Notes under the pieces: model-generated
What the model was told of the DNA's origin: nothing
Seen by the model: only the letters and a program-made list of their open reading frames with translations
The model's database searches: none
Program-made: the position numbers and the translations under genes
Shown: in pieces, positions 1-13,047 of the stretch
Layout: each line of letters opens with the position of its first letter
Numbering within the stretch: the first letter of the stretch is position 1
Origin: Candidatus Nomurabacteria bacterium
GTDB taxonomy: Bacteria; Patescibacteriota; Minisyncoccia; Phycocordibacterales; UBA9973
Direction of reading: 5' to 3'
Length of the DNA: 64,000 nt
NCBI GenBank assembly: GCA_016699085.1
Contig: CP064958.1
Span: forward strand, 540,619 to 604,618

Positions 1-143
1 TTCGAGTGACTGCTTCTCAATGTTTGTGACGTAGCCTTTCATATACCTATTGTAGCACAACATAGAGCTCTATAAGTCCAGTGTAGGGAGGAGAATTTTT
101 CCAACCCTACTGGTAGTGAGATAAAAAATGCTAAAATGACTAT

Positions 144-512
144 ATGAAGTCAATCCTCGCTATATGTATTCTTATCGCGTTTGCTACATTTGGTGGATTT
201 GGCATGCTGGCTATAGCGGGAATGGACGGACACCACCATGAGCCAGGCTGTCCTTTTATGCCTGGTGAGCAGGCTATCTGCGACATGAATGCCTCGGACC
301 ATGTTACCGCATGGAAAAATGCGTTTACCGTTCCACTTCCGATGCTCTTCACATACTTCTTACTCGCAGTAGCAGTTTTATTTGTTTGGAAATATTACAG
401 TCCTTCAGACCTCTTTGTTCGGCGACTTCTACCAAGTCGTAGAGATCTTGCATCAATCTCGCTCTACCAAGAATTGTTCTCAGGCGGTATTTTGAACCCT
501 AAAGCCCCTTAA
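144..512 (+). CDS. small membrane protein with His-rich (GHHHEPGCPFMPGE) loop, putative metal-binding; hypothetical
   Basis: ATG ORF with two hydrophobic segments and an HHH/CPxMP-like motif; antisense ORF 140..352 judged spurious. Confidence 0.45.
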   Translation: MKSILAICILIAFATFGGFGMLAIAGMDGHHHEPGCPFMPGEQAICDMNASDHVTAWKNAFTVPLPMLFTYFLLAVAVLFVWKYYSPSDLFVRRLLPSRRDLASISLYQELFSGGILNPKAP

Positions 513-553
513 TATTTTTAAGGATTTTATTAATATTTAATCTTTAAAACATT

Positions 554-964
554 ATGCAAAAAAATACAGCAATTATTATCGCAATCGTTACGCTTGTCGC
601 AGGTCTTGGTATCGGATATCAATTAGGCGGAAGTAGGGGGTCGTTCGAAACAGCCAATCAAAACACTCCAGGTACTCACATGATGCCAAATGGCCAAATG
701 ATGGGTAATGGGGCAAGTATGAGTATGGCAGACATGATGACCAGTATGAATGCAGAGCTAGAAGGGAAGACAGGAGATCTATTCGACCAAGCATTTCTTG
801 CTGAAATGATCGTCCATCACCAAGGTGCGGTAGAGATGGCGGAGCTTGCTCTTACCAATGCCAAGCATCAAGAGCTCAAGGATTTGGCAACCGGAATCAT
901 TTCTGCGCAGAATAAAGAAATTGCAGAAATGAAGTTGTGGCAAACTGATTGGTATAACCAGTAG
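554..964 (+). CDS. DUF305 (ferritin-like) domain protein with Met-rich N-terminal region
   Basis: Motif MIVHHQGAVEMAE typical of DUF305; N-terminal signal/TM; Met-rich stretch MMPNGQMMGNG...MSMADMMTSM resembles Cu-binding Met motifs. Confidence 0.7.
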   Translation: MQKNTAIIIAIVTLVAGLGIGYQLGGSRGSFETANQNTPGTHMMPNGQMMGNGASMSMADMMTSMNAELEGKTGDLFDQAFLAEMIVHHQGAVEMAELALTNAKHQELKDLATGIISAQNKEIAEMKLWQTDWYNQ

Positions 965-1140
965 AAGTGTAATGGGGTCTAAGCTATATCTGAACAAAGC
1001 ACCACAATATATGGTGCTTTGTTTGATGCTCCCTCTGGTGGACAAGTTCAGAACCCTCAATTGGATTCAAATTAAAAGAGATTTAGAGTTTTCTAAAATT
1101 TTTGAGGTATTCCCAATGGTAGCACTTCAGAAATCATAAT

Positions 1141-1178
1141 AAAAAAAAAGACCCGCCCAAGAGCAGGTCTTTTTAAAA
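1141..1178. terminator. bidirectional intrinsic terminator (A-run, GC hairpin agacc..ggtct, T-run)
   Basis: aaaaaaaaagacccgcccaagagcaggtctttttaaaag between convergent genes 554..964 and 1185..1457. Confidence 0.7.
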
Positions 1179-1184
1179 GTCGAT

Positions 1185-1457
1185 TTATAATTTTTCGGCA
1201 ACAACCTTACCTTTCTCGGTCAGATAATAGTACCCTTTGTTGTCTAATTCTCCGAATGAGAAACCAATGAGTTTCATATCCCAGAGGTTGCCACATGGTG
1301 TTCCTGTAAATATTTTTTCTCGTTCATCGAGAGTAATATCTACATCGCCTTTCTTTTTAGTTTCTTTAATAATTTTTTCTTCAGCACTTGAGATTTGAAT
1401 TGATAGTGTACTTTTTATTTGTTTGTGGAGGTTTTTTTCAATTATGATTGTTTTCAT
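1185..1457 (-). CDS. hypothetical protein (90 aa) driven by family-B promoter/leader
   Basis: ATG ORF; conserved leader hairpin ends about 8 nt upstream of the start. Confidence 0.5.
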   Translation of the reverse strand: MKTIIIEKNLHKQIKSTLSIQISSAEEKIIKETKKKGDVDITLDEREKIFTGTPCGNLWDMKLIGFSFGELDNKGYYYLTEKGKVVAEKL

Positions 1458-1571
1458 TTTTTACTTGATTGGTTTCCATAAACCCCAATAAAGGATCTCT
1501 GAAAACCAATCAAATACATGTGAAAGGGCAGTGCTGTTCATATAATACTTATAATATATGTATTTGTCAAA
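1458..1571 (-). promoter_or_regulatory. family-B module: sigma70-like promoter (TTGACA-N17-TATTAT, minus sense) plus conserved 5'-leader hairpin TTGATTGGTTTCC...GGAAACCAATCAA
   Basis: rc of tgtcaa at 1565-1570 and rc of ataata at 1542-1547; inverted repeat ttgattggtttcc / gaaaaccaatcaa at 1467-1513; same module at 4247-4369 and 10506-10627. Confidence 0.65.
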
Positions 1572-1575
1572 CCTT

Positions 1576-1605
1576 GCTCCGAACATGGGTTGACTAAGGA
1601 AACCG
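1576..1605 (+). repeat. family-A-like palindromic element (gctccgaac...ggaaaccg)
   Basis: Shares the CTCCGAAC core with repeats listed below. Confidence 0.5.
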
Positions 1606-1607
1606 AA

Positions 1608-2057
1608 TTAATACACAGTCGGAAACTCAGCAACTGATTCATATTGATACGATGGCGAGGTGTAGTCGGGGAGTGCCTCCTCAAAAGTTTTACGCAGTAC
1701 TAGGTAGGAGTTTTCACCTTTAGTTATCTTAAACCATTGTCCCAACCCAGCTGCATAGCACTGAATCTTGCTGGAACCCGCTACGATATCCGTATCTTCC
1801 TCTGAAGGAAGGATATCATTACAAGAACCATCGACCTCGTCAATTTCTTTTGAAAGCACCTTTCCATTGGCATTCATTGCATCCAAGAAAATTTTAGTAC
1901 CTGGTATACCATCAAGATTTAAAGCGCCTTCTTGATATCGCCATGTAAAAGATACAAGTGGAGCTTGTTTTATAGTAGTAGATTTATATCCCCCTATGCC
2001 TACATAGGTAGCTATAGCTAATATCACAATCACGAGAACTATTGCAATTCTTTTCAT
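1608..2057 (-). CDS. membrane-anchored hypothetical protein
   Basis: ORF with N-terminal TM; the track start at 2081 is TTG, so the ATG at 2057 is preferred. Confidence 0.45.
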   Translation of the reverse strand: MKRIAIVLVIVILAIATYVGIGGYKSTTIKQAPLVSFTWRYQEGALNLDGIPGTKIFLDAMNANGKVLSKEIDEVDGSCNDILPSEEDTDIVAGSSKIQCYAAGLGQWFKITKGENSYLVLRKTFEEALPDYTSPSYQYESVAEFPTVY

Positions 2058-2130
2058 AAAAAAAGTATAGCACAGGTTCAAATTCTTAGTTTTGGCAACA
2101 AAAAAACTTACAGACTAAGAGTACTTAATT

Positions 2131-2178
2131 GTCCGAACCTACTTGTTTATCCTTCAACAGGGGAGGATACTCGGAAAG
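2131..2178 (+). repeat. family-A palindromic element (gtccgaacc...ctcggaaag)
   Basis: Terminal inverted cores ccgaac / ctcgg around a variable centre, upstream of the arsR promoter. Confidence 0.55.
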
Positions 2179-2207
2179 TTTCCAAAACAAATTTAAAATA
2201 AAAGTCA

Positions 2208-2235
2208 TTGACTTTATAAAATACTTTGCTATAAT
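2208..2235 (+). promoter_or_regulatory. sigma70-like promoter TTGACT-N16-TATAAT for the ArsR-family gene
   Basis: ttgactttataaaatactttgctataat located about 25 nt upstream of ATG 2260. Confidence 0.6.
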
Positions 2236-2259
2236 AATTTCAAACAAAAACTAAGCGTT

Positions 2260-2577
2260 ATGGCAGAAAAAAACGGTTTGACCAATGTAAAATTGGTCGC
2301 ATCTATTTTACGTGCTCTCAATCATAAGTTGAGACAGAGCATGATGGAATTAATGGAGAATAAGCCGGGAATCACCGTCACAGAAATATACGCCAAGTTG
2401 CACTTGGAACAGTCTGTGGCATCACAACATCTTGCTATCCTGCGACAGGCGGGAATTGTAAAGATCGAACGAGACAAGAAAATGATTCGCTATTCTTTAA
2501 ACAAGGAGCGAATCAAAGAAATCGATTTGCTGCTTCAAAAAATTGTTGCAGGGCATAAGTCGATAACCAAAGCCTGA
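2260..2577 (+). CDS. ArsR/SmtB-family HTH transcriptional regulator
   Basis: Classic ArsR helix-turn-helix: TVTEIYAKLHLEQSVASQHLAILRQAGIV. Confidence 0.85.
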   Translation: MAEKNGLTNVKLVASILRALNHKLRQSMMELMENKPGITVTEIYAKLHLEQSVASQHLAILRQAGIVKIERDKKMIRYSLNKERIKEIDLLLQKIVAGHKSITKA

Positions 2578-2582
2578 GTCAA

Positions 2583-2612
2583 AAAAGCATCCCAAAATAC
2601 CGGGGTGCTTCT
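2583..2612 (+). terminator. intrinsic terminator after the ArsR gene
   Basis: gcatcccaaaataccggggtgc hairpin followed by ttcttctttt. Confidence 0.5.
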
Positions 2613-2620
2613 TCTTTTGT

Positions 2621-2676
2621 CAGACCTTCACCACATTCACAATGTTCACGTGCTCCGAATGTGAATGTTCGGAGAG
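2621..2676 (+). repeat. family-A element with a short palindromic core (ctccgaa tgtgaatg ttcggag)
   Basis: ccttcaccacattcacaatgttcac module followed by a perfect 7-bp inverted repeat. Confidence 0.65.
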
Positions 2677-2719
2677 TAATAATTGAAACTACTAGTTAAA
2701 CAATAACAGTAAATTACCT

Positions 2720-3169
2720 TTATTTCTCAGCTAACTGCTTTAATGTTTCTAGGGCTTTTGGCCACATACCGTTAAACATATCCTTGTACTCATCTTTCAC
2801 GTTAATGTCTATAATCAATTCAGTTCCACCATCTTTTTCCTTGAACGTGTAGTTTTCAAAATACAACTCATCAGGTCCATAGCTATTTTCCTTGCCCTGC
2901 ATGATTTCACCCGAGTATTTGATAGAAATAAATTCACCTGGTCTGGATTCTTGTATTTTTCCGATCATCCCTGAAATAGTGCCATTTTTTTCCTTGCCTA
3001 AAAACTTAATATCACTTCCTTCATCCCAACCACCTTCAACATATGATTGTGCTGTGGGGTCAGGATTAAAAACTGATGTCCATTGCTTGTATGTTTCTTC
3101 GCCTAGCATTGTGTCCCAAACTTTTTGCTGAGGAGCATTGATATCAATTGTATAGTGTAAATGTTCCAT
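2720..3169 (-). CDS. SRPBCC superfamily protein (AHSA1/Aha1-like START fold)
   Basis: About 150 aa with polyketide-cyclase/Aha1-like pattern (HYTIDINAPQQKVWD...); ArsR-SRPBCC pairs are a known association; track start 3214 is GTG and ATG 3169 is preferred. Confidence 0.65.
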   Translation of the reverse strand: MEHLHYTIDINAPQQKVWDTMLGEETYKQWTSVFNPDPTAQSYVEGGWDEGSDIKFLGKEKNGTISGMIGKIQESRPGEFISIKYSGEIMQGKENSYGPDELYFENYTFKEKDGGTELIIDINVKDEYKDMFNGMWPKALETLKQLAEK

Positions 3170-3237
3170 ATGTGTATTATTGATTATTCTAATAAAGTTA
3201 TTATAACAAAACACCTGCTTTTAACAGATGTGTCTTG

Positions 3238-3296
3238 TTGGCTCCGAACCTGCTCGCCCGACCTCTGGTGGGGAGGATAATCAGAAGAGTTTGGCA
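3238..3296 (+). repeat. family-A element (ggctccgaacc-tgctcgcccgacctctggtgggg-...)
   Basis: Same core and inner cccgacctctggyggg module as copies at 6371, 7471 and 10630. Confidence 0.65.
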
Positions 3297-3304
3297 AGGA
3301 AGTA

Positions 3305-3330
3305 AAAAAACCTGCTGGTGCAGGTTTTAA
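3305..3330 (-). terminator. intrinsic terminator for gene 3350..3805
   Basis: aaaaaaacctgctggtgcaggtttt. Confidence 0.6.
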
Positions 3331-3349
3331 GCTAATCTTTAGCTAATGG

Positions 3350-3805
3350 TTAGTGATAGAGTACTACTTGTGGATCTGCTTTCTCAATTGCGCTGAAGAT
3401 TATTGGAAGATGAGCTTTGTTCCAAAGTTTCTCTTCCAAAGAGAGTGCAATAGGGCCACTGTTCTGTATTTTGTTTAAGCAGCTCTGAAGTGTACTGATA
3501 TCTTCTATTTCATTCTCTGCATGCAATTTGTAACAGACAATGCCATGGTAAGTATGGTCACTCTTCTTTATTTCAATGATCTCACCAAGTTTTCTCTGTC
3601 TAAAATAATTAAACTCTGGAACTATTTTAGTTTTAACAAGTAATCCTGCAAAACTACTCACTCCTTTTTTTGCGTAAAATTGGCTGCTTAAATCGTTGTA
3701 TCCTGAGGGTGGGTACATATAGATACCATCTGTATTCAGGAGCACTGCAATGTCATGGCACCTAGTTGTGAGAATTGATTCGAGGGATACGTGTTTGAGT
3801 AGCAT
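3350..3805 (-). CDS. hypothetical protein (151 aa)
   Basis: ATG ORF with its own promoter; no recognisable motif. Confidence 0.45.
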   Translation of the reverse strand: MLLKHVSLESILTTRCHDIAVLLNTDGIYMYPPSGYNDLSSQFYAKKGVSSFAGLLVKTKIVPEFNYFRQRKLGEIIEIKKSDHTYHGIVCYKLHAENEIEDISTLQSCLNKIQNSGPIALSLEEKLWNKAHLPIIFSAIEKADPQVVLYH

Positions 3806-3849
3806 AGCTTTATTTATTGATTAGGAATGTGAAAAAACTATCTGGATAT

Positions 3850-3878
3850 ATACTACAATATCATTTTATTTAGTCAAC
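3850..3878 (-). promoter_or_regulatory. promoter TTGACT-N17-TAGTAT (minus sense) for gene 3350..3805
   Basis: rc of agtcaa at 3873-3878 and rc of atacta at 3850-3855. Confidence 0.55.
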
Positions 3879-3881
3879 TCA

Positions 3882-3913
3882 TGCTCCAAGCTTGGGAGGA
3901 TATTCGGAAGGGG
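3882..3913 (+). repeat. family-A element (gctccaagcttgggaggatattcggaagggg)
   Basis: Abuts the -35 box of the promoter above. Confidence 0.55.
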
Positions 3914-3967
3914 ATGGTAAAAATAAAAAGCCAACTAAATGAGTTGGCTTCTCTAATCATTTCCTTC

Positions 3968-4246
3968 TCAACAAAAAAGAAATTCCTTACACTTGTCTCT
4001 AACGGCTCTACAATGACTCATTTGTTTTAAGGTAGTGATAATTTCTAAATTTGGCTTATCTTTTTTGAGCAAAATGTTGACTGCGAAAAGAGCTTCTTCA
4101 TCTGAATATTCATTATTTTTAGCCTTAGCTATCTTATATAGTTCATCATCGGACATTTTTTTGATTTGCCTTTTCTTCTGTTCATTTTGTACTTCAGTGG
4201 CAAGATTTTTTAGCTCTTCATCAGTCATGGTTTTTGTTTCTTTCAT
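3968..4246 (-). CDS. hypothetical Lys/Glu-rich protein (92 aa), family-B leader
   Basis: Preferred start ATG at 4246 (MKETK...), because the upstream 66 nt are the conserved leader hairpin; the track ORF extends to 4312. Confidence 0.4.
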   Translation of the reverse strand: MKETKTMTDEELKNLATEVQNEQKKRQIKKMSDDELYKIAKAKNNEYSDEEALFAVNILLKKDKPNLEIITTLKQMSHCRAVRDKCKEFLFC

Positions 4247-4369
4247 TTTATTACGTATTGAATTGGTTCCCACAAAAGCCAGAAGCTTCTCTGGAAACCA
4301 ATCAAATACCATGTGAAAGGGCAGTGCTGTTCTCTACATTACTACGATATTGTTTTTTGTCAAACCTTC
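4247..4369 (-). promoter_or_regulatory. family-B promoter (TTGACA-N17-TAATGT) plus leader hairpin
   Basis: tttgtcaaa at 4355-4363; leader ttggttcc...ggaaaccaatcaa at 4263-4305. Confidence 0.55.
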
Positions 4370-4392
4370 CTTCGGACATGTCTCTTCCTGCC

Positions 4393-4505
4393 AGGTTCAC
4401 AACATACACAACGTTCACTTGACTCCGAACTTGGGACGATGCTCCCGATTTATTAAATTGTACTCAATTTGTTTAAATCGCAGTCCTGTTAAGGGTTCGG
4501 AAAGA
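4393..4505 (+). repeat. family-A long variant (ccttcacaacatacacaacgttcac + gactccgaac...gatttattaaattgtactcaatttgtttaaatcgcag...gggttcggaaag)
   Basis: Near-identical 110-nt copy at 8300-8411 and a mosaic copy at 6371-6497. Confidence 0.75.
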
Positions 4506-4544
4506 GTTTGATAGAAAATTAAAAAGACCAACACTCGGTTGGTC

Positions 4545-4868
4545 TTAAATCAGACTCGGATCATTCTTGAACAAAAAAGGTTTTCTCTTTTCAATAAATT
4601 GGATAATCAGTAAGCATAAGACTCCCATAAGTGCGTTATACCAAATACAATCTACTGAATAAGCGTTGCTTTTTATTTTGAAAAGCCAAACAAAAATTGC
4701 TGAAATAGAGGTGCCAAAGAAAAACTGACTAAGGAGCTCTAATCCCTTAACACGCTTTACTAATAGAGAGACAAGTATTGTTATGACAAATAACAATACT
4801 GTGAAATAAAACCAATGTTCATGACTGTCGTTGCGAAAATGGAAAAGTTCACAGAAGAAATTTTGCAC
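4545..4868 (-). CDS. small integral membrane protein (hypothetical)
   Basis: Two or three TM segments; GTG start. Confidence 0.4.
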   Translation of the reverse strand: MQNFFCELFHFRNDSHEHWFYFTVLLFVITILVSLLVKRVKGLELLSQFFFGTSISAIFVWLFKIKSNAYSVDCIWYNALMGVLCLLIIQFIEKRKPFLFKNDPSLI

Positions 4869-4936
4869 AGCTATTAAGTTTTATAGTGTTAAAGAACTGA
4901 TATTATAATAGCATAAAATATTACAATAGTCAACTA

Positions 4937-4963
4937 TGTTCCGAACGTGGATGTTCGGAAGGG
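4937..4963 (+). repeat. family-A short element (gttccgaacgtggatgttcggaaggg)
   Basis: Perfect inverted cores ttccgaac / gttcggaa next to the -35 box (rc TTGACT) of gene 4545..4868. Confidence 0.6.
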
Positions 4964-4986
4964 TCTATCAAGAAAAGTTAATCACT

Positions 4987-5793
4987 CTATAAAAAGTATT
5001 TATAGGTAAGGAGGATGATTCCGATAAGAGAAAGAGATACAGAAAGGACTTTTGCACTTTTATCTGGTAGCTTATTAAGTATTTTTTTTCCATAGTGTTG
5101 AGCTAATAGTAGGAAGGGGATAACGGTAACTACAAGGATAAGGTCTCTTGCATTAAGATGGTTATGAAATAGAATAATAATTCCAGTTACAAAAAACACT
5201 GAAAGTCCAAGAGTTGAGCCAATTGCTCGCACAGAGACTTCAGAAACTACTGTTCGCAAGTAATTGTTTCTAATATCTGCCCCAGGTAAACCTCCCCCTT
5301 GTAGAAAACCAGAAAATAGTGCAACCATACTAAGCTTTGCTCTGTGCACAGACTCAATTGGTGTTTGGTCTGTTGAAACGTGTCGAAGTGTCTTGTAGAT
5401 AAAATATATTGATGCAATTACAACGACTGCAGCTAAAAGTTTTGCACTCATATATGAAATAAGGGTACCACCTAAGATTGCTCCAATGATTGAGAAGGGC
5501 ATAAGAGCTTTTACAATATCCAGATTCCTCTTTTCAGTAAATGCTTCTTTTCTAAATAAATAGACTCGATGTATACCACTAAAGAAAAAAATAAATGCAC
5601 CAATCCCTATTGCTCTTTGGGGGTCTGTAAAGAACGCAGTTACAGGATTGATAATCATTGATCCAGAAGTTTGAACAACGATGTTTATAAATGTTGTAGC
5701 AATAAGCCAAATATATACAAAAAGATACTCAGAAAGAAAATCTGTTAGTATAGTCATCGGATCACTGTAACATAGTTTTCTGAGAGTGACCAT
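4987..5793 (-). CDS. TauE/SafE (DUF81) family membrane permease
   Basis: Polytopic membrane protein with the GxGGGxxxxP motif (FLQGGGLPGA). Confidence 0.6.
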   Translation of the reverse strand: MVTLRKLCYSDPMTILTDFLSEYLFVYIWLIATTFINIVVQTSGSMIINPVTAFFTDPQRAIGIGAFIFFFSGIHRVYLFRKEAFTEKRNLDIVKALMPFSIIGAILGGTLISYMSAKLLAAVVVIASIYFIYKTLRHVSTDQTPIESVHRAKLSMVALFSGFLQGGGLPGADIRNNYLRTVVSEVSVRAIGSTLGLSVFFVTGIIILFHNHLNARDLILVVTVIPFLLLAQHYGKKILNKLPDKSAKVLSVSLSLIGIILLTYKYFL

Positions 5794-5803
5794 GCAGCTC
5801 TAA

Positions 5804-5858
5804 AACCTTCACAACATACACAACGTTCACTTGCTCCGAACGTGGATGCTCGGAAGAG
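5804..5858 (+). repeat. family-A element (ccttcacaacatacacaacgttcac + gctccgaacgtggatgctcggaagag)
   Basis: Conserved module immediately upstream of ATG 5793. Confidence 0.7.
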
Positions 5859-5909
5859 TATTAGTCAAATAAAATAATAGATTTCGTATGATTATTAAAT
5901 GATTCAAAA

Positions 5910-5945
5910 ACAAAAAAGATACCTGCTCCTACAGATATCTTTTAC
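5910..5945 (-). terminator. intrinsic terminator for gene 5964..6296
   Basis: minus sense aaagatatctgtaggagcaggtatcttttttg. Confidence 0.6.
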
Positions 5946-5963
5946 ATACAAAGTCAGAAGATT

Positions 5964-6296
5964 TTAAACTCCAAGTAATTTTTTAGACTTCAAAATTCCT
6001 TCAGGGTCAAAGGGGGTGTTTAGTTGTCGAACAATCCTTGCTCTTGAAACTTCAAGCTCCACTTCCTTCTCAACTGAATGATTAAGGATTTCACTTTTTA
6101 AATCTGGCACATCGTTCTGCATTTCTATTACTGAAGTAAGTAATTCAAGAAATGTATCCTTGTCGATTGAATGATTTCCAAACTTCCCACAAATAAACCT
6201 AATCGCCCCTAATCGACTTTCGTAAAAATTAGATTGAATATTGTTGATAATTATAGCAACCAACAAGCCATTTTCCGAAATTAAAACGTTTTTCAT
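5964..6296 (-). CDS. hypothetical protein (110 aa)
   Basis: ATG ORF with promoter TTGACT-N16-TAGTAT (rc of 6330-6366). Confidence 0.4.
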   Translation of the reverse strand: MKNVLISENGLLVAIIINNIQSNFYESRLGAIRFICGKFGNHSIDKDTFLELLTSVIEMQNDVPDLKSEILNHSVEKEVELEVSRARIVRQLNTPFDPEGILKSKKLLGV

Positions 6297-6370
6297 ATAT
6301 ATGGGTTTATGTGAAAGTTTGACTTAACAATTTAAACCAATACTACGATATTATTCTATTTAGTCAATGG

Positions 6371-6497
6371 TGCTCCGAACTTGCCTGCCCGACCTCTGGC
6401 GGGGGATGATGCTCCCGATTTATTAGATTGTACTCAATTTGTTTAAATCGCAGTTGATTCAACAGGATCATACTAGGTACACGGAAGGGTTCGGAAA
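6371..6497 (+). repeat. family-A mosaic element (v2 head gctccgaacttgcctgcccgacctctggcggggg joined to v1 tail gatgctcccgatttatta...gggttcggaaaa)
   Basis: Chimeric structure shows the repeat units are modular. Confidence 0.75.
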
Positions 6498-6505
6498 ATT
6501 TTAAA

Positions 6506-7042
6506 TTAACTATTCGCTAGAAACCAAGTTATCTCTTCACTGACACTGGCAAACAAATCATCAAGTTCTTTACTTACACCTCTACACGCATTCGCAACTT
6601 TTTTTACACCTTCAAATCTTTCCAGCCTTTCCTCCTTACTCATTAGTGTATTCTTGGCATCTAATTCACCTCCAGAAATTTGATCCGCAATCTTTATCCG
6701 TCGTACCGACTCACTTTCTTTAGAAATTTTTTCTGCCTGTATTGCTTTTCTTTCACCCACAGGAAGATTTTTCCATTCAGGAGAATCAGTTAAACCATTC
6801 ACCATGGTTGCAATATGTTTACCAAATTCTCTCTCGATATCTTCTATCGTTACACCAGTATCTTCCACAGTGTCATGCAGCCAGGCTGCAGCAATCTCTT
6901 CTTCACTGCCTCCTGATAACTGTACTAGACTAGCAACTCTTTGAAGATGAAAATAATATGGTGTTTTGAATGCATCACTTTCGGTGTGATTTTTGTGAGC
7001 TTCTTTGGCAAACTGCTTTGCTTTTTCGATAAGTGTAGTCAT
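6506..7042 (-). CDS. stand-alone HD-domain (p)ppGpp hydrolase (small alarmone hydrolase, Mesh1/SpoT-hydrolase-like)
   Basis: HD motifs YYFHLQRVA...AAWLHDTVEDT...IEREFG are paralogous to the N-terminal hydrolase domain of the RelA/SpoT gene at 49063..50583. Confidence 0.7.
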   Translation of the reverse strand: MTTLIEKAKQFAKEAHKNHTESDAFKTPYYFHLQRVASLVQLSGGSEEEIAAAWLHDTVEDTGVTIEDIEREFGKHIATMVNGLTDSPEWKNLPVGERKAIQAEKISKESESVRRIKIADQISGGELDAKNTLMSKEERLERFEGVKKVANACRGVSKELDDLFASVSEEITWFLANS

Positions 7043-7059
7043 TAGTAGATTATAGAAAG

Positions 7060-7431
7060 TTAATTTCGATAGATCTCAATTCGTATTCCATCTGGGTCAT
7101 CAAGCCAGATGTATTCATTACCAAATTTGCCTAGTTTTATTTCACTGTGTTCTATATCAACTTCAGAAAGAAGTTTTTGAAATTGTTTTAGTTCATCTAT
7201 TGTTTTTACACCAAAGCCAATATGGTTCATGCCAATACTATCCTTATCGTACTCTCTATCCGAAACATCTTTTGGACTTAGCTTGAAAAACAATCTGGTC
7301 TCTCCAACCTTATACACGACCATGTGTTCATCATGAATAATCGGTTTAGGCAGGAATTTTGAGTAAAACTCTGCAGTCCTACTTATATCTCTAACTATTA
7401 AAGACATGTGATCAATAAATGCTGGTTGCAT
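7060..7431 (-). CDS. VOC (glyoxalase/bleomycin-resistance/dioxygenase) family protein
   Basis: IDHMSLIVRDI...NHIGFGV...IWLDDPDGIRIEI pattern. Confidence 0.75.
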   Translation of the reverse strand: MQPAFIDHMSLIVRDISRTAEFYSKFLPKPIIHDEHMVVYKVGETRLFFKLSPKDVSDREYDKDSIGMNHIGFGVKTIDELKQFQKLLSEVDIEHSEIKLGKFGNEYIWLDDPDGIRIEIYRN

Positions 7432-7470
7432 GGTTGGATTATAGCAGATTGAGAAAGCTTATCTCCTGCA

Positions 7471-7548
7471 AACCTTCACAACATACACAACGTTCACAGG
7501 CTGCGAACTTGCCTGCCCGTCCTCTGGCGGGGGATGATGTTCGGAAGA
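7471..7548 (+). repeat. family-A element (ccttcacaacatacacaacgttcac + gctgcgaacttgcctgcccgtcctctggcgggggatgatgttcggaagaa)
   Basis: Lies in the divergent promoter region between 7060..7431(-) and 7642..8244(+). Confidence 0.7.
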
Positions 7549-7641
7549 ATTTATTGATATAGTTATATTGACAATTTAATTTAAAAATGTTACTATTTCA
7601 CTAGTAAATAAGTTCATTAAATCACATAAACTAATAACATA

Positions 7642-8244
7642 ATGAAAAAAGCTATTCAACCTCAAGGGTTTGGTGAAGGACTAACTGTCCCGATGCCTAA
7701 AATCTGGGTATCAGATGATGACATGATTGACCAAAAGGTTGGAATTCACATGTGTGAATTCCATGAAGATTGTGATCCTGCTCCAGGATGGAAGAGAAAA
7801 GATGTAAGTATGACTGGGAATTGTAACTGTCACCTTAAAGGAACAACAGTGACAATAACTGGTCTGAAAGCAACCAGTCGTGCCACCTTTTATCGTTCCA
7901 CCTGTTACACGATTGCTGAAGATAAAAACCTTATTCATGAATCTGAATTTTCATCTGAAAAAGAAGACTCAGCAGGGGTTTCGGGCTATGTACTGGAAAA
8001 TGAAAAGGGTCAGTTACTTACTGCTGCGTATACATATACCTCAGCTATTAAACAGCCTCTGTTTGGATATGTATTCAATACTGGTCTTCTTAAGATCATG
8101 TTAAAAAACGGACTTGCAGTAGGTAATCCTATTAAGGCCTGGCCTGTAAAATGTAAAAACAATGAGGGTAGCAAAAGATCCTTAAATGGATCATCCCTCA
8201 CATGGCAGGAATTAGCAAATGTTATTTTAGTGAAAAAGAAATAA
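7642..8244 (+). CDS. hypothetical Cys/His-containing protein (200 aa)
   Basis: ATG ORF preceded by TTGACA-N17-TACTAT. Confidence 0.45.
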   Translation: MKKAIQPQGFGEGLTVPMPKIWVSDDDMIDQKVGIHMCEFHEDCDPAPGWKRKDVSMTGNCNCHLKGTTVTITGLKATSRATFYRSTCYTIAEDKNLIHESEFSSEKEDSAGVSGYVLENEKGQLLTAAYTYTSAIKQPLFGYVFNTGLLKIMLKNGLAVGNPIKAWPVKCKNNEGSKRSLNGSSLTWQELANVILVKKK

Positions 8245-8299
8245 TAAAGAAAAGATTGTTTAAGCCAAACCGAAAGGGGAGGCTTTTTCTTTTCCCCCA

Positions 8300-8411
8300 C
8301 ACCTTCACAACATACACAACGTTCACTTGACTCCGAACTTGGGACGATGCTCCCGATTTATTAAATTGTACTCAATTTGTTTAAATCGCAGTCCTGTTAA
8401 GGGTTCGGAAA
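8300..8411 (+). repeat. family-A long variant, near-identical to 4393-4505
   Basis: More than 100 nt identical; preceded by the ggctttttcttttcccc element. Confidence 0.8.
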
Positions 8412-8465
8412 TCCTTGTTTGACACGGTATTGAGTGTATAGTAGGTTTAGTAAAATTATACTGAC

Positions 8466-9137
8466 ATGAAATACATCGATTTAACTCATACACTTTCATC
8501 ACCTATCCCAAGCTGGGATGGAGATTGTTGCTTTACTGCTCCTATTGTTTACGATTATAAGGATTCAAAAGAACCCAATCTATTCCGTATCCATAGAATC
8601 GAGGCAAAAGCTGGTTGTGGTACGCATATGGACGCTCCTGCACACTGTATTCCTGGTGGGAAGACTATCGATACCCTCGATCTTGATACTCTCTTAGTTG
8701 ATTGTATTGTTATCGACATCTCTGAATCTGCACATGAAAAGTATGTTGCTGGTTTAGATTGTATTGAAACTTTTGAGAGGGAACACGGCAAAGTGCCAGT
8801 AGGAAGCTTCGTGATTTTCTATACTGGTTGGGACAAGTATTGGGATGATAAAGAAAAATATCGCAACAATCTAAACTTCCCAAGTATTAGTGAAGATGTT
8901 GCCAAGTTTCTTATTGAGAGAAATGTTTCTGGTGTTGGTATTGATACCTTGTCACCAGATGCAGTCGGTAATGATTTTCCAGTACACCGCGTAATGCTTG
9001 GGGCAGGAAAGTACATTGTTGAAAATGTTGCAAATGCAGGGATGTTGCCTGCAACTGGTGCAAAAATTTCTGTCATGCCAATAAAGATAAAAGATGGCAC
9101 AGAAGCACCAATACGACTTGTCGCTCAGATTCAGTAA
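8466..9137 (+). CDS. cyclase-family protein / kynurenine (aryl)formamidase-like
   Basis: HxGTHxDxPxH motif (GCGTHMDAPAHC) of PF04199. Confidence 0.75.
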   Translation: MKYIDLTHTLSSPIPSWDGDCCFTAPIVYDYKDSKEPNLFRIHRIEAKAGCGTHMDAPAHCIPGGKTIDTLDLDTLLVDCIVIDISESAHEKYVAGLDCIETFEREHGKVPVGSFVIFYTGWDKYWDDKEKYRNNLNFPSISEDVAKFLIERNVSGVGIDTLSPDAVGNDFPVHRVMLGAGKYIVENVANAGMLPATGAKISVMPIKIKDGTEAPIRLVAQIQ

Positions 9138-9184
9138 GGCTTCTTTTAAAAGATCTCTCAAATGGGATCTTTTTCTTTTCCCCA

Positions 9185-9242
9185 GACCTTCACCACATGC
9201 ACAACATTCACTAGCTCCGAACTTGGGATGTTTGGAGGGTGG
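9185..9242 (+). repeat. family-A element (ccttcaccacatgcacaacattcac + gctccgaacttgggatgtttggagggtgg)
   Basis: Diverged copy. Confidence 0.6.
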
Positions 9243-9298
9243 AGCATAATATTGACAATAGTGCATATATAGTATATAATATATAAAAATTTAAGAGT

Positions 9299-9604
9299 AT
9301 GAAAAAGCACTATTTCTTTGTCACAGCTGATTTCAAATTTAGGAAAAAATATGTTAACACACAATATGATTCCCATCCAACTGATGTGTGGAGGTTTGAT
9401 CAGAAAGAGACCTACATGATTGAGCAAAAAAAAGATGAAACGGATGAAATTTTCTTCCCAGCTCTAAAAAAGTATATTACCGATGCTTTGGATGCATATG
9501 CGGATTCGTGGCTTGCTCAAAGTAATTCAAAAGTACCGCAAGATAGTGGGTGGCAATGGGCAAAAGACAGTGTTAGCTTGATAACCTTTTCAAAGTTAAA
9601 CTAA
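9299..9604 (+). CDS. hypothetical protein (101 aa)
   Basis: ATG ORF. Confidence 0.4.
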   Translation: MKKHYFFVTADFKFRKKYVNTQYDSHPTDVWRFDQKETYMIEQKKDETDEIFFPALKKYITDALDAYADSWLAQSNSKVPQDSGWQWAKDSVSLITFSKLN

Positions 9605-9648
9605 CATCTGAGTGTTGTGAGAAGTCTTGCATTATAGGCAAGGCTTTT

Positions 9649-9679
9649 TCTTTTCCCCAGACCTTCACAACGTTCACTT
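9649..9679 (+). repeat. family-A head (ccccagaccttcacaacgttcacttg) truncated by the 176-bp repeat
   Basis: Element interrupted exactly where ggctcgggaggtaggg begins. Confidence 0.6.
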
Positions 9680-9855
9680 GGCTCGGGAGGTAGGGTGATC
9701 TTTCGTTACACGAACAGTAGACCTTTTTGAAATGTTCAGAATATATTCTTCACATTTAGCAAAAAGCTTTTCGATCCCTACACGAAAGCCAAGCAGTTGG
9801 CTTTCTCTCCCTCGCCACAAAAACTAAAAACCCCCGAAGGGGTCTAAAGTTTTTG
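9680..9855 (+). repeat. 176-bp direct repeat copy 1, starting with a 16-nt copy of the tRNA-Asn 3' end (ggctcgggaggtaggg)
   Basis: Copy 2 at 11657-11832 lies exactly 1977 bp away; contains hairpins gaaagccaagcagttggctttc and ccccgaagggg and an inverted tRNA T-arm fragment ttcgatccctac. Confidence 0.85.
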
Positions 9856-9886
9856 GGCTCCGAACTTGGGATGATGTTCGAATGAA
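9856..9886 (+). repeat. family-A core (gggctccgaacttgggatgatgttcgaatg) directly after repeat copy 1
   Basis: Sits in the position that the tRNA body occupies after copy 2. Confidence 0.55.
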
Positions 9887-9950
9887 TATAATGAGGAAAT
9901 AAAAAAGCCCTTTATATCACTAAATGAGAAAGGGCTTTAATAAGTGAAAA

Positions 9951-10505
9951 TCAAAGTTTATTTATTTCGTTTGCAATCTCTAAAAGTTTAGGATCGTTAG
10001 TTTTACAAAGAAAAAATAATTGCTCATAATTTTCTGGTGTAGTAGGATTCTGAGCTTTTAATTTTTCAAGGATTTTAGTTGTTAAATTAAACCACTCGGC
10101 CTCAAGTCTTTTTTCAAGAAGAGAGGCTTTTGCACCCCATCCCATTTTTGAAGAGTCTTCATAGACGTTTTTTATCAGTCTAACTTGATCTAGATCATCT
10201 TCTTTTTTGATATTTGCAAGAAGTTTATTAAACGCAATATACATTTGAAGACAGATGAGATCTTTTATTTCCTGAGAAGCTACACTAACCTTTTCGCCAC
10301 TATAACCAAATGCATTTACACCATAATAAAGACTTATGTAATGTTTTAGTTCTCTGCATTTTGCTAGCACAGCTTTAGTTTCTTCAAGATCCCATTCCCA
10401 AATGTGGATACTATTAGCTTTGCTAACTAGATTTTCAATTGGAGAATCAAGAATGATTTCCATCTTTGTTGCACCTTGTCCCTGTGCTTTTTTAAAGAGT
10501 TGCAT
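9951..10505 (-). CDS. hypothetical protein (184 aa), family-B leader
   Basis: Preferred start ATG 10505 (MQLFKK...) placed after the conserved leader; the track start 10568 is TTG. Confidence 0.45.
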   Translation of the reverse strand: MQLFKKAQGQGATKMEIILDSPIENLVSKANSIHIWEWDLEETKAVLAKCRELKHYISLYYGVNAFGYSGEKVSVASQEIKDLICLQMYIAFNKLLANIKKEDDLDQVRLIKNVYEDSSKMGWGAKASLLEKRLEAEWFNLTTKILEKLKAQNPTTPENYEQLFFLCKTNDPKLLEIANEINKL

Positions 10506-10627
10506 AATTTTGTGTTTATTTGATTGGTTTCCACAAAAGCCATTTATGCTCCTCTGAAAACCAATCAAATACTATGTGAAAGGGCCGTACTGCTTATACA
10601 ATACTGTAATATCTTAATTTGTCAAAT
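10506..10627 (-). promoter_or_regulatory. family-B promoter (rc tttgtcaaa) plus leader hairpin tttgattggtttcc...gaaaaccaatcaa
   Basis: Third copy of the module. Confidence 0.6.
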
Positions 10628-10629
10628 TT

Positions 10630-10680
10630 TGCTCCGAACTTGCTTGCCCGACCTCTGGCGGGGGATGATGTTCGGAAGAG
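10630..10680 (+). repeat. family-A element (gctccgaacttgcttgcccgacctctggcgggggatgatgttcggaagag)
   Basis: Same variant as at 6371 and 7495. Confidence 0.7.
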
Positions 10681-10705
10681 TTTAAAAAAATGTTAATGTA
10701 TACTC

Positions 10706-11599
10706 ATGAACTCTAACCTCGCCCCAGAAATATTTCGCAAACGCCTTATTATTGAAGGGAAATACACGGTTGAAATAAAAGAGGAGCAATTTGTCACTGA
10801 TTTCCTCTCTGATCTCTCTAGAGAGCTTGGAATGACAATTATTGCTGGCCCATTTATTTCGAGTGCCACAGGTAAGTCGGTACCCCTTCATGATGGTTAT
10901 GAAGGTTCACTTGTGTGGGCAGAATCAGGAGCAAACACATATATTTGGACACGTTCGAAATTCTGCACCGTTGATATTTATTCATGCAAGGAATTTGATT
11001 CAGAAAAAGCAATCAGTTTTATAAAAGAACGATTTGGCATTATAGAATTTTCATATTTTGAATTACCAGACCCTATGGCTTCAAAGCAAGATTCTCGAAT
11101 CGTATTACGACAAAGTGAAAATAAGGGGAACGGTGTTTTTGCCAATAAGGCAATACCTCAAGGAACAGTCGTTTCTTATGTGGATGGACAGATTCACTAC
11201 GCTCAAAAAGAATCTGAAGTATATGTGCATGCTTCAAATCACGCAGTTCCTTTTCATAAATATTTTTATAGAAATGGCTTCAACACAGACGCAGTCAAAT
11301 TAAATCACTCGTGTGAACCAAATTGCTATGTAAAAGATTTATTTTTCGTGACAACCATGCGAGATATACAAGCTGGGGAAGAACTTACATACTGTTATGG
11401 GCTTTTCTGTAACTCTGATTGGGAAAATCCCGAAGGTGTGTGTCATTGTGGTTCTAAAGAATGTCTTGGAAAAATTCTGCCATGGAGAGAGCTCCCTCAA
11501 GACTTTAAGATTAAATACTTTGACTACACCGCTGATTGGATTTTGTTTGATGAAATAAAGAATAAAGGACTTCTTGAAGAACTAAAGAAAAGCATTTAG
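10706..11599 (+). CDS. fusion protein: N-terminal pyruvoyl-type S-adenosylmethionine decarboxylase-like domain (SpeH/AdoMetDC fold) plus C-terminal SET-domain lysine methyltransferase with post-SET Cys cluster
   Basis: SET: GNGVFA, NHSCEPNC, GEELTYCYG, CHCGSKEC. N-terminal: LVWAESGANTYIWTRSKFCTVDIYSCKEFD aligns to the AdoMetDC VVIAESHLTIHTWPE...AVDVFTCGD pattern including the ES self-cleavage site. Confidence 0.75.
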   Translation: MNSNLAPEIFRKRLIIEGKYTVEIKEEQFVTDFLSDLSRELGMTIIAGPFISSATGKSVPLHDGYEGSLVWAESGANTYIWTRSKFCTVDIYSCKEFDSEKAISFIKERFGIIEFSYFELPDPMASKQDSRIVLRQSENKGNGVFANKAIPQGTVVSYVDGQIHYAQKESEVYVHASNHAVPFHKYFYRNGFNTDAVKLNHSCEPNCYVKDLFFVTTMRDIQAGEELTYCYGLFCNSDWENPEGVCHCGSKECLGKILPWRELPQDFKIKYFDYTADWILFDEIKNKGLLEELKKSI

Positions 11600-11656
11600 G
11601 TTAGAATTTCTAAAAAGGTAACAAAAAATCACCTTGTTTTGAAAGGTGATTTTTCT

Positions 11657-11832
11657 GGCTCGGGAGGTAGGGTGATCTTTCGTTACACGAACAGTAGACC
11701 TTTTTGAAATGTTCAGAATATATTCTTCACATTTAGCAAAAAGCTTTTCGATCCCTACACGAAAGCCAAGCAGTTGGCTTTCTCTCCCTCGCCACAAAAA
11801 CTAAAAACCCCCGAAGGGGTCTAAAGTTTTTG
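11657..11832 (+). repeat. 176-bp direct repeat copy 2, abutting tRNA-Asn
   Basis: Identical to 9680-9855 as far as I can read. Confidence 0.85.
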
Positions 11833-11834
11833 GG

Positions 11835-11906
11835 CTCGGGAGGTAGGGATCGAACCTACGACCAACCGCTTAACAGGCGGTCGCTCTACCGCTGAGCTAC
11901 TCCCGA
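11835..11906 (-). tRNA. tRNA-Asn (GTT)
   Basis: Cloverleaf read by hand: acceptor TCGGGAG/CTCCCGA, anticodon loop CTGTTAA, T-loop TTCGATC. Confidence 0.85.
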
Positions 11907-12065
11907 ATCTATTTAAAGAAGGCTGTTTCGGCATCCTCTGCCTTCTCTACTCTTTAACCACTGAATAATTTTCTAACATTCTCATATAAGAATGTGCAAT
12001 TATCCTAGCAAAATTAGGCATAAAAAGCAAAAACAGGCATATATGCCTGTTTACTGTTAATTTCC

Positions 12066-12530
12066 TCATTGATAGTAGTCCTGCCCATTTATCCTGTAGC
12101 CATATTGTGTTACAACCTGACCAGTACTTAAAGTCACCGATCTTGAAATTGGTACTGCTTCTACGGCGTTCTCAGTCTTCTTAGTTTGTTGAGAAATATC
12201 TGATATGACTAGGTAGACTATTCCCACCGTCTGTAGTACATCATTTACAGTTCTCATTATTCGAATACCTTGCCCTCTGTCTGAATAGAAATAGCCAGTA
12301 GGGGTCATGTACCTCCTGTCGTTTCCATAGATCGATTGATTAGGAGTCCAATTCGGGTACTGATTTCTGTGTACTGTTTGTCCACTATTGGTATTCCAAC
12401 AGTTTCCATACATTTGTGAATTGGCAGGGTAATTCAATGGAGTATAGTTTGGAGGCGTCATGTTGTACTGTGCATTGACAGCATGTGCCATAAAGCTCAG
12501 TAAGGCTGTAATTACAATGAACGTTTTCAT
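12066..12530 (-). CDS. secreted N/Q/Y-rich hypothetical protein with signal peptide
   Basis: MKTFIVITALLSFMAHAVNA signal; low-complexity composition. Confidence 0.5.
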   Translation of the reverse strand: MKTFIVITALLSFMAHAVNAQYNMTPPNYTPLNYPANSQMYGNCWNTNSGQTVHRNQYPNWTPNQSIYGNDRRYMTPTGYFYSDRGQGIRIMRTVNDVLQTVGIVYLVISDISQQTKKTENAVEAVPISRSVTLSTGQVVTQYGYRINGQDYYQ

Positions 12531-12660
12531 AGTAGATGATTTTCTTCATTGAACCACTTTTGTGCATATACTGCAATGGGTGGAGGTTAATAATCCAATT
12601 CCTCAACATTCGTATATTTGCTATACTTATAGTAAGCATTATCACTAACTATTTACGCTT

Positions 12661-13047
12661 ATGCTTACAGTCAATATAAAAGCAACGAATATCGAACTAA
12701 CAGATGCCATCAAAGACTACGCTGAAAGAAAATTAAATAGTCTCGATAAATTCATGCATTCAGAGGCTGAAAATATGCATGTAGAAATCGGTAAAATTAG
12801 CAATCATCATAAACAAGGGGAAGTATACAAAGCAGAAGTGAACTTAAGTATTGGCGGCAAGAAATTTTATGCTATAGCTGAGAAAGAGGATCTCTATGCA
12901 GCGATCGATGAAGTGAGAGAAGACATTGTTCGACAGCTGACTGAGAACAAAGAGCGAAGTGTGACGTTGTTCCGCCGAGGAGCAAGAAGTGTCAAGAAAA
13001 TGATGAAGGGCATTTCAAAGAGAAATCCATTTACGTCGAAGTATTAA
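12661..13047 (+). CDS. hpf: ribosome hibernation-promoting factor (HPF/RaiA/YfiA family)
   Basis: N-terminal NIELTDAIKDYAERKL pattern and length typical of HPF. Confidence 0.8.
   Translation: MLTVNIKATNIELTDAIKDYAERKLNSLDKFMHSEAENMHVEIGKISNHHKQGEVYKAEVNLSIGGKKFYAIAEKEDLYAAIDEVREDIVRQLTENKERSVTLFRRGARSVKKMMKGISKRNPFTSKY

Follow-up and report, generated by a model that had tools for sequence, protein, structure and literature searches.

What kind of locus separates two conserved chromosomal flanks in a bacterium of the Candidate Phyla Radiation (CPR, or Patescibacteria) while its own gene content is specific to the strain, and by what means would such genes come and go? CPR genomes are about 0.8 Mb in size and are usually described as poor in mobile elements. 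The question is raised by a stretch of 64,000 nucleotides (nt) from Candidatus Nomurabacteria bacterium (contig CP064958.1, positions 540,619 to 604,618, hereafter the window), where an original prediction made from the letters alone had placed, over roughly the first 12 kb, a genomic island assembled by repeated insertions. As shown below, positions 1091-11841 hold a strain-variable array of self-expressed single-gene cassettes, anchored at a tRNA-Asn gene and bounded by a family of co-oriented hairpins that travels with the cassettes between genomes and loci. The interpretation favoured here, to which a probability of roughly 0.55 is given, is that of a hypervariable gene-cassette array in a CPR chromosome, bounded by hairpin sites much like a sedentary chromosomal integron or a cluster of attC sites lacking integron-integrases (CALIN), with cassettes exchanged at the sites by an enzyme encoded in trans. 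The kind of locus is a known one, i.e. an integron-like cassette array or tRNA-linked flexible locus; the sites and the tRNA-like anchor are what is novel. Contigs used for comparison bear L-numbers, and coordinates are positions in the window unless a contig is named.

The limits of the variable segment follow from the sister strains. Contig L003 (JGI 3300056831) matches positions 1-1090 at 89.5% and positions 11842-12954 at 96.7%, and between both flanks it carries an unrelated 8.4-kb segment with CsoR, CopA, an HMA/DsbD protein, a cupredoxin and small open reading frames (ORFs). The independent contig L004 itself ends inside the terminal site Z, positions 1-1090 being 89.5-90.2% identical to L003 and L004. 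From this comparison, 1091-11841 is the strain-specific segment and 1-1090 a conserved flank, so that the accessory region first proposed stands for the former and not for the latter. An assembly artefact was rejected, since the flanks, the unit formed by the SET cassette and the X element (see below) and the hairpins recur in independent assemblies. The contrast in composition that had been anticipated with the rest of the window is weak: GC content is 0.365 in 1091-11830 vs. 0.396 elsewhere (p=0.03 for the difference between genes) and the codon-frequency divergence reaches 0.016, about twice the null of 0.008±0.002, but GC at third codon positions is identical (0.32) on both sides, that is, a near-native composition. 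Outside the array, the window is devoted to housekeeping (ClpB, S1, SpoU methylase, ParB, DprA, FtsQ, Dus, SerRS, MiaA, MsrA), and the closest relatives of its formyltransferase, with a top identity of 71%, are exclusively metagenome-assembled genomes of the Paceibacteria, Nomurabacteria and Parcubacteria type. Comparison with related genomes bore out the break in synteny, as the order def-fmt-(GNAT)-HPF-tRNA-Asn is kept in seven more distant relatives (L005, L006, L007, L013, L026, L057 and L079), in all of which homology to the window ends at the tRNA-Asn gene.

On the opposite side, the array abuts a conserved zone of small stress and detoxification genes. The left flank is part of this wider zone (Cupin_2, OmdA, DoxX_2, AHSA1, DUF1801, DUF1428, 3-dmu-9_3-mt), which is common to L001, L003, L005 and L079 with a shuffled gene order, and some of its genes are 85-92% identical at the nucleotide level between genomes whose core genes are only 72-75% identical. 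A putative role in copper handling had been suggested for the two flank genes, and gains support from L003, where the DUF305 gene precedes genes for CsoR, CopA, the HMA/DsbD protein and the cupredoxin; this copper operon occupies positions 10625-15714 of L003, at the locus, in place of the cassette array.

The saturation with repeats noticed in the original prediction is the key feature of the segment. From intergenic reading and motif mapping, 14 hairpin sites (S1 to S14) and a degenerate terminal one (Z) were delineated, essentially one per gene boundary and 0.5-1.7 kb apart (Table 1). The 16 genes between Z and the tRNA include 5 inverted ones, yet all 14 sites lie on the minus strand, and it is because one co-oriented hairpin stands between essentially every gene that the segment reads as a cassette array with its own recombination sites. 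A site is GCTCCGAAC-loop-GTTCGGAAG and, read on the strand of the tRNA, CTTCCGAAC-loop-GTTCGGAGC, with GTTCG/GAGC on the 3' side (here and below, a slash marks the junction). In short sites the loop counts 6, 7 or 10 nt (consensus ATCMTCCCAN), and elsewhere a 20-nt D module or a C module of about 54 nt enlarges it and adds internal stems, the central part measuring 6, 7, 10, 30, 64 or 108 nt; on folding, D-type sites give two stems separated by an internal loop, over about 48 nt. An adjacent P motif, TTCACAACATACACAACGTTCAC, occurs in six copies (at most 3 mismatches), four of which have a conserved extension, and a seventh, truncated, is found in S13. The stretch 4396-4503 recurs as 8304-8411, a perfect 108-nt duplicate site with unrelated neighbours.

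The two repeat families announced at the outset are present far above chance. With at most one mismatch, GCTCCGAAC has 16 matches (7.3±2.7 expected), 13 of them within 1576-10639, the 23-mer TTCACAACATACACAACGTTCAC has 6 (0 expected), all on the plus strand, and the second family, a leader palindrome, is found in three copies. A covariance model of 20 short sites (R1), run without filters over all 64 kb, returned 10 matches at E<0.05, none of them on the plus strand or outside 2649-10677 and five of them absent from the training set, and nothing significant in the 52 kb of core DNA of the window. As for known RNA families, Rfam (e-value mode over 1-13 kb, gathering mode over the whole window) reported only tRNAs, with no match for the hairpins, the leader or the X element. 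Two other views of these repeats were discarded, namely the P motif as a small Cys-rich peptide, given frame-shifting indels between copies, and the hairpins as intrinsic terminators, given that they have no T-run and that the cassettes own separate canonical terminators.

Table 1. Features of the array and its flanks (window coordinates; bit scores are those of the covariance model R1 for the sites)
Feature	Position	Strand	Description
Conserved left flank	144-964	+	Small membrane protein with HHHE/CPF motif (144-512; His/Cys-motif) and Met-rich DUF305 protein
DUF305	554-964	+	Pfam, 6e-21; Met-rich protein
Site Z	1046-1075	-	Degenerate terminal half-site GCTC/CCTCTGGTGGACAAGTTCAGAAC, tRNA-distal end of the array; resembles a D-type site minus one arm; kept in the window, L003 and L001
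Cargo of cassettes 1-14	1185-10568	mixed	hyp90(-), hyp157(-), ArsR(+), SRPBCC(-), hyp151(-), hyp114(-), hyp107TM(-), TauE(-), hyp110(-), HD_4+VOC(-), hyp200(+), cyclase(+), hyp101(+), hyp205(-)
Leader hairpin (repeat family 2)	1455-1540, 4238-4332, 10503-10595	-	Palindrome of ~75 nt, stem of ~24 bp, in the 5' untranslated region of three unrelated cassettes; z -4.4 to -5.2
Site S1	1576-1624	-	One arm degenerate; between hyp90 and hyp157 cassettes
Site S2	2131-2176	-	Diverged; between hyp157 and ArsR; 9.3 bits (weak)
ArsR HTH	2260-2577	+	Pfam
Site S3	2607-2678	-	Extension, P motif and hairpin with 6-nt loop; between ArsR and SRPBCC; 31.3 bits
AHSA1/SRPBCC	2720-3214	-	Pfam
Site S4	3241-3290	-	D-type loop GCCCGACCTCTGGTGGGG, one arm degenerate; between SRPBCC and hyp151
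Site S5	3880-3913	-	Between hyp151 and hyp114; 31.3 bits, outside the training set
Site S6	4394-4503	-	P motif and hairpin, 64-nt structured loop (C module); dG -14.6, z -3.9
Site S7	4935-4964	-	TTCCGAAC-ATCCAC-GTTCGGAA; between hyp107TM and TauE, followed by the promoter of the next cassette; 41.2 bits
TauE	4987-5793	-	Pfam
Site S8	5806-5859	-	P motif and hairpin with 6-nt loop; between TauE and hyp110; 40.7 bits
Site S9	6369-6498	-	108-nt loop with D and C modules; between hyp110 and HD_4; dG -20.5, z -2.9
HD_4	6506-7042	-	Pfam; aligns to RelA/SpoT hydrolase region
Glyoxalase/VOC	7060-7431	-	Pfam
Site S10	7473-7548	-	P motif and D-type hairpin; between VOC and hyp200; 13.2 bits, outside the training set
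Site S11	8284-8411	-	Extension, P motif and C-module hairpin; between hyp200 and cyclase
Cyclase	8466-9137	+	Pfam
Site S12	9169-9241	-	Extension, P motif and hairpin; between cyclase and hyp101; 33.7 bits
Site S13	9644-9887	-	Split at GGCTC/CGAAC by the 177-nt insertion X' (9684-9860); hairpin part 44.4 bits
Site S14	10628-10679	-	D-type hairpin upstream of the AdoMetDC-SET cassette; z -2.9, 23.7 bits, outside the training set
AdoMet_dc-SET cassette (15th)	10662-11661	+	Gene 10706-11599
AdoMet_dc+SET fusion	10706-11599	+	Pfam
X element	11656-11837	-	tRNA terminator and tRNA-like structured element; 3' end repeats the last 16 nt of tRNA-Asn (11657-11672)
tRNA-Asn(GTT), intact	11831-11907	-	ARAGORN; Rfam 71.9 bits; 3' end GAGCC, array anchor and junction

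The sites divide the segment into 15 cassettes of about 0.5-1.7 kb with one gene each, except that HD_4 and VOC share one. Each of them comes with promoter-like and terminator-like signals of its own, the top sigma-70-like matches of the region being cassette promoters and the terminator-like sites numbering 27 (9.0±2.9 expected), and on these sequence signals the cassettes can be regarded as self-contained transcription units. Regarding the cargo, Pfam upheld each of the domains first named (DUF305, ArsR, SRPBCC, TauE, HD_4, VOC, cyclase and SET fusion), and nine further ORFs of the first 12 kb had no match in Pfam, NCBIfam or PHROG; for three of these nine orphans, comparison with the sequences of the PDB gave no match either. 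Exact-protein look-ups returned no record for the His-motif protein, the cyclase and HD_4, and the AdoMetDC-SET protein is identical to QQR50031.1 ("Candidatus Nomurabacteria bacterium"). The leader hairpin, also present in L001 (~9830-9890) and L003 (8922-8964), is placed between promoter and start codon, preceded by CAGCACTGCCCTTTCACAT, and changes in its inner stem are compensated; it may act on translation or stability, or serve as an operator. Of note, the longest-ORF starts of 3968-4312 and 9951-10568 are artefactual, their first 20-24 codons translating the leader palindrome, and the true starts are likely internal ATGs (MKETKT... and MQLFKK...).

A pattern scan of metagenome contigs retrieved the hairpins on low-GC, CPR-like contigs from several environments; matches on high-GC metagenome contigs were rejected as coincidences in coding sequences, and those on viral contigs, high-GC only, as chance. 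Altogether, 33 sites on nine contigs (14 in the window, three each in L079, L093 and L070, two each in L001, L068, L074, L080 and L094) are co-oriented without exception, which amounts to 24 independent agreements on contigs with at least two sites. In L079, def-fmt-HPF-tRNA-Asn is followed by three cassettes, each ended by a hairpin, with the same polarity to the tRNA-Asn gene as in the window, and the two arrays have no cassette in common. In L093 (GCA_040384045.1), three co-oriented sites between uvrD and ksgA delimit a gene for 178 amino acids (aa), a SET gene and a gene for 83 aa, with no tRNA nearby. The hairpin was not found in L003, L005, L007, L013, L026 and L057, and no other hairpin family was detected in the site-less accessory zones of L001, L003, L005 and L079.

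Cassettes are met in other genomes in differing order and at differing loci, and the AdoMetDC-SET cassette is the one whose movement can be followed. Together with X (10662-11837), it has a 99.6%-identical counterpart in L001; on this contig, which comes from another species, the flanks are unrelated on both sides and no tRNA is found, other genes common to L001 and the sister strain L003 being 72-86% identical. SET proteins at least 90% identical occur in at least four contexts, namely the window array, L001, L086 between DUF4015 and EF-Ts, and L092/L093 between uvrD and ksgA. In L092, L093 and L094 the cassette is flanked by hairpins, one of which directly precedes the SET promoter, the arrangement also seen in the window, and homology with L092 (83% at the nucleotide level) runs from 10659, in the hairpin loop, to 11661, ending at TTTTTCTGGCTC. 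From these sequence comparisons, the SET cassette can be considered as demonstrably mobile as a unit. Its distant homologues (80-81% aa identity) are ordinary chromosomal genes, beside gyrB in L084 and, in L085, flanked by a duplicated tRNA-Ser 3' end. More broadly, the fusion of AdoMet_dc (pyruvoyl S-adenosylmethionine-decarboxylase-like) with SET is widespread in Patescibacteria (62 matches with both domains, 35-100% identity) and acts like a single-gene mobile unit in at least five genomic contexts (the window, L084, L085, L086, L092 and L093 being cited), often close to a tRNA gene (Asn, Ser or Thr).

These distributions bear on the main rival explanation, namely that the hairpins would be selfish short repeats, similar to repetitive extragenic palindromes (REP), to miniature inverted-repeat transposable elements (MITE) or to portable promoter-hairpin modules, lodged in the spacers of a recombination-prone region where genes turn over by natural transformation and homologous recombination between repeats and conserved flanks, with no dedicated recombinase. 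Several features are those expected of such repeats: some sites are as short as 23-27 nt, D and C modules are nested in loops, identical 108-nt sites sit beside unrelated genes, a block of about 130 nt comprising site, promoter and leader is shared upstream of three unrelated genes, an 82%-identical SET gene has no hairpin in L086, DprA is encoded in the window, and no recombinase was found in the searches described below. The short conserved intergenic hairpins of REP and MITE palindromes, or of bacterial interspersed mosaic elements (BIME), likewise come in nested and composite forms. They differ from those described here, which are confined to variable arrays with one per gene boundary, travel with the cassette between genomes and are co-oriented as strictly as the 33 sites on nine contigs attest; neither the 52 kb of core DNA of the window nor the hairpin-free relatives contain significant dispersed copies. 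In addition, the shared polarity to tRNA-Asn of two arrays with no common cassette, and the precise splitting of S13 at GGCTC by a 177-nt unit with GGCTC on both sides, are hardly accounted for by selfish repeats, and this explanation is judged rather unlikely.

The cassette array has, besides its sites, a singular anchor. On the tRNA strand, the tRNA-Asn gene ends with ...CCCTACCTCCC-GAGCC; next come its terminator and a 160-nt sequence with CCCTACCTCCCGAGCC once more at its end. This element, X, belongs to a 182-nt perfect direct repeat (9679-9860 and 11656-11837) in which the 16-nt tRNA 3' end, GGCTCGGGAGGTAGGG, is embedded, the 16-mer being found at 11833, 11657 and 9680. The att-like duplications that had been noted beside the tRNA gene are thereby confirmed, the tRNA itself by ARAGORN and Rfam. 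In S13, GGCTC and CGAAC are parted precisely by X', the perfect 177-nt copy of X, which has GGCTC on either side. Elements with the architecture of X stand after tRNA-Asn in L026, where two diverged copies are found, and in L005, and after the first cassette in L079. They have a long outer stem, in the 3' strand of which that of the tRNA acceptor and T-stem is copied, then a 9-bp hairpin whose sequence varies, and a T-like stem that closes a large variable loop. The sequence of the outer stem follows that of the acceptor of the local tRNA, and in the consensus structure (RNAalifold, 5 sequences) 9 of the 24 pairs show compensatory double changes. Because this architecture is conserved in several lineages with compensatory changes, X is no simple att scar. 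All mapped junctions (9683, 9860, 11661, 11837 and 11132 of L001) fall in GGCTC, i.e. GAGCC on the tRNA strand, a core common to the outer hairpin foot, the tRNA-Asn 3' end and the X 3' end. In L079, one cassette stands between tRNA and X and two after X; as cassettes follow both, both tRNA-like 3' ends are used as insertion points. At junctions in unrelated contigs (L074, flipped, ~1900-1945; L003, ~18935), CCGGGGGAGCC, a hairpin then GAGCC, is found as well, and a GAGCC preceded by a stem may be the general recombination signature.

The tRNA-Asn locus is a general integration hotspot in the lineage. In L013, the gene of a 561-aa large serine recombinase (11486-13171) overlaps the tRNA-Asn 3' end, and in L007 the tRNA 3' half is duplicated, diverged, 30 nt downstream (11855-11925). 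In L003 (18930-19010), a tRNA-Asn copy has a foreign anticodon and T-arm, and its 3' acceptor strand, CGGGGGA, is unable to pair with the 5' strand; this copy is apparently a recombinant (hybrid) pseudo-tRNA with a broken acceptor stem. In L005, the closest genus-level relative, ARAGORN reports no tRNA-Asn because the anticodon loop is interrupted by a group I intron (11468-12125; Rfam 76 bits) with an HNH-type ORF.

Such a hotspot would fit a classical tRNA-targeted island, in which successive integrations by an integrase into the tRNA-Asn 3' end left tandem remnants and att duplications, the integrase being lost or outside the window. The 16-nt copies at 11657 and 9680, the events just listed in L013, L007 and L003 and the SET gene of L085 between duplicated tRNA-Ser ends are in keeping with it, as is the general aspect of tRNA-linked islands, with strain-variable cargo on the 3' side of a tRNA gene, copies of the tRNA 3' end and hotspots in relatives. 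The tRNA gene does mark one boundary of the segment, sister homology resuming at 11842. On the other hand, nothing tRNA-like is found near the distal end (~1091), the only copies of the tRNA 3' end being those at 11657 and 9680, so the tRNA repeat fails to bound the island; the 16-mer belongs to a conserved tRNA-like structure, the composition is near-native, no integrase adjoins, and an island explains neither 14 co-oriented hairpins with single-gene modularity nor arrays devoid of a tRNA. The classical model accounts for the hotspot and for the copies of the tRNA end but leaves the array unexplained, and as a reading of the locus it is improbable. What stands of the genomic island initially predicted is the accumulation of many small independent insertions beside tRNA-Asn; what does not is the anatomy of an integrase island.

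Closer to the array is the canonical integron without nearby integrase, a CALIN in which the hairpins would be divergent attC sites and IntI would be encoded elsewhere. The likeness is extensive: a row of small, mostly single-gene cassettes with many orphans, strain-specific content, one cassette in different arrays, and co-oriented imperfect palindromes with conserved stem bases (...AAC / GTT...) around a variable structured centre of 6-110 nt, the D-type sites even folding into two stems and an internal loop over about 48 nt. The 14 sites also lie on one strand well within the 4 kb that may separate co-oriented sites in integrons and CALINs. Canonical attC sites comprise R''=RYYYAAC and R'=GTTRRRY, R and L boxes and extrahelical bases over about 55-141 nt, with a crossover between the G and TT of R'. 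The sites described here depart from them in consensus (the arms TCCGAAC/GTTCGGA fit RYYYAAC/GTTRRRY at 5/7 positions only), in two-box architecture (most have no second, L-box stem), in length (most are below the attC minimum of about 55 nt) and in crossover position, mapped at the outer foot of the stem (GTTCG/GAGC) and not at G/TT. Moreover, every cassette has its own promoter and terminator instead of being promoterless, 5 of the 16 genes are inverted, and the anchor is a tRNA 3' end with a tRNA-like element, not attI and intI. intI was not found, nor did the searchable literature yield any report of integron-like arrays in CPR. A true CALIN is considered improbable, slightly more so than the classical island.

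How could the array then operate? Each cassette comprises a promoter, sometimes the shared leader hairpin, one gene (once two), an intrinsic terminator and a bounding hairpin, and in the mechanism envisaged cassettes would be excised and inserted singly by site-specific recombination at the hairpin/GAGC core. On the plus strand, a cassette would read C-GAAC-loop-GTTCGRAAG - cargo - GCTC, the circularisation of which would restore one complete hairpin. The 3' end of tRNA-Asn or X would be the primary insertion point, in a role similar to attI, and the recombinase would be encoded elsewhere and act in trans, an enzymatic step that we purely infer. The locus would thereby be a reserve of accessory genes, exchangeable and each expressed on its own, with metal, redox, small-molecule and stress functions, along with orphans. 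The perfect 182-nt and 108-nt repeats can be listed in support of recent activity. Going further, this may be a previously undescribed, IntI-independent system of cassette capture and exchange in Patescibacteria, with self-promoted single-gene cassettes, an expandable hairpin of about 26 nt ending in GAGC, and a trans-acting enzyme inserting at hairpin feet and at the 3' end of tRNA-Asn or of its decoy X; this more specific proposal is only tentative.

Several observations weigh against the exchange of cassettes at dedicated sites. Foremost is the enzyme. As originally stated, no recombinase domain (Phage_integrase or other) is found in the window, at least among the approximately 50 larger ORFs scanned, a few ORFs of 150-820 aa outside the island being unscanned; the integrase then suspected upstream is missing from the Pfam lists for the 10 kb past the window start in the sister-strain contigs L003 and L004, and no recombinase adjoins the arrays of L079, L092 and L093. 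Some sites are 100% identical despite unrelated neighbours, which a self-propagating repeat or gene conversion would also fit. S1, S2, S4 and Z are degenerate, and 6-8 of the 14 sites measure no more than 23-30 nt and have one stem. In L006, the polarity of one weak site relative to fmt is reversed. As accessory genes shared by L001, L003, L005 and L079 are site-less, gene flux at the locus is not always hairpin-dependent. Finally, SET (with X) is the only cassette traced through several contexts, and the crossover was mapped solely at junctions involving tRNA-like sequence. In the search for candidate enzymes, no recombinase family was common to two or more of 24 CPR relatives (84 ORFs downstream of fmt, single-match families being largely unlisted); the 475-aa protein between the X copies of L026 was rejected as a repeat and kinase-like protein, and the 223-aa protein of L001 as a membrane-anchored secreted one.

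Two other known kinds of element can be compared. Xer-dependent modules (pdif of Acinetobacter and arrays at dif of integrative mobile elements exploiting Xer, IMEX) also have short dyad-symmetric sites flanking small cargo, a recombinase in trans and a build-up by repeated insertion at one site. They differ in that pdif has a fixed 28-nt 11-6-11 layout in alternating orientation, whereas here the centre ranges from 6 to about 110 nt, every site is in direct orientation and the central region does not contain the junction. Elements of the IS200/IS605 (HUH) type rely on a Y1 transposase, their own or in trans, that cleaves at a fixed tetra- or pentanucleotide beside subterminal hairpins; the constant GAGC beside the hairpin is compatible with this type, and Y1_Tnp had no match among the window ORFs scanned.

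If cassette exchange does take place, episymbionts with tiny genomes would own a dedicated flexible-gene locus, and storing and swapping individually expressed accessory genes would explain the adaptation of such reduced symbionts, the cargo covering metal handling, alarmone hydrolysis, permeases, VOC, cyclase and SET enzymes and many orphans. With the hairpin model R1, the flexible gene pool of CPR can be searched for in metagenomes by a concrete signature, and the putative enzyme, its GAGC/hairpin site and the tRNA-like element together offer a testable way towards a new system of site-specific recombination.

A few features lie beyond the array. Between tRNA-Asn and HPF, positions 12066-12530 encode a secreted, Asn/Gln/Tyr-rich orphan of 154 aa that is kept in the sister strain and absent from more distant relatives. 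A 54-nt tandem repeat (16951-17080; 2.4 copies, 81% matches) occupies the intergenic region between the ORFs 16248-16844 and 17141-17731. Two low-GC stretches (0.34-0.37), 28937-31916 and 41985-43376, contain orphan ORFs (565, 377, 269 and 191 aa; no Pfam match) and adjoin a tRNA cluster (Leu-Cys-Leu, Lys) and tRNA-Tyr; they may be further variable loci.

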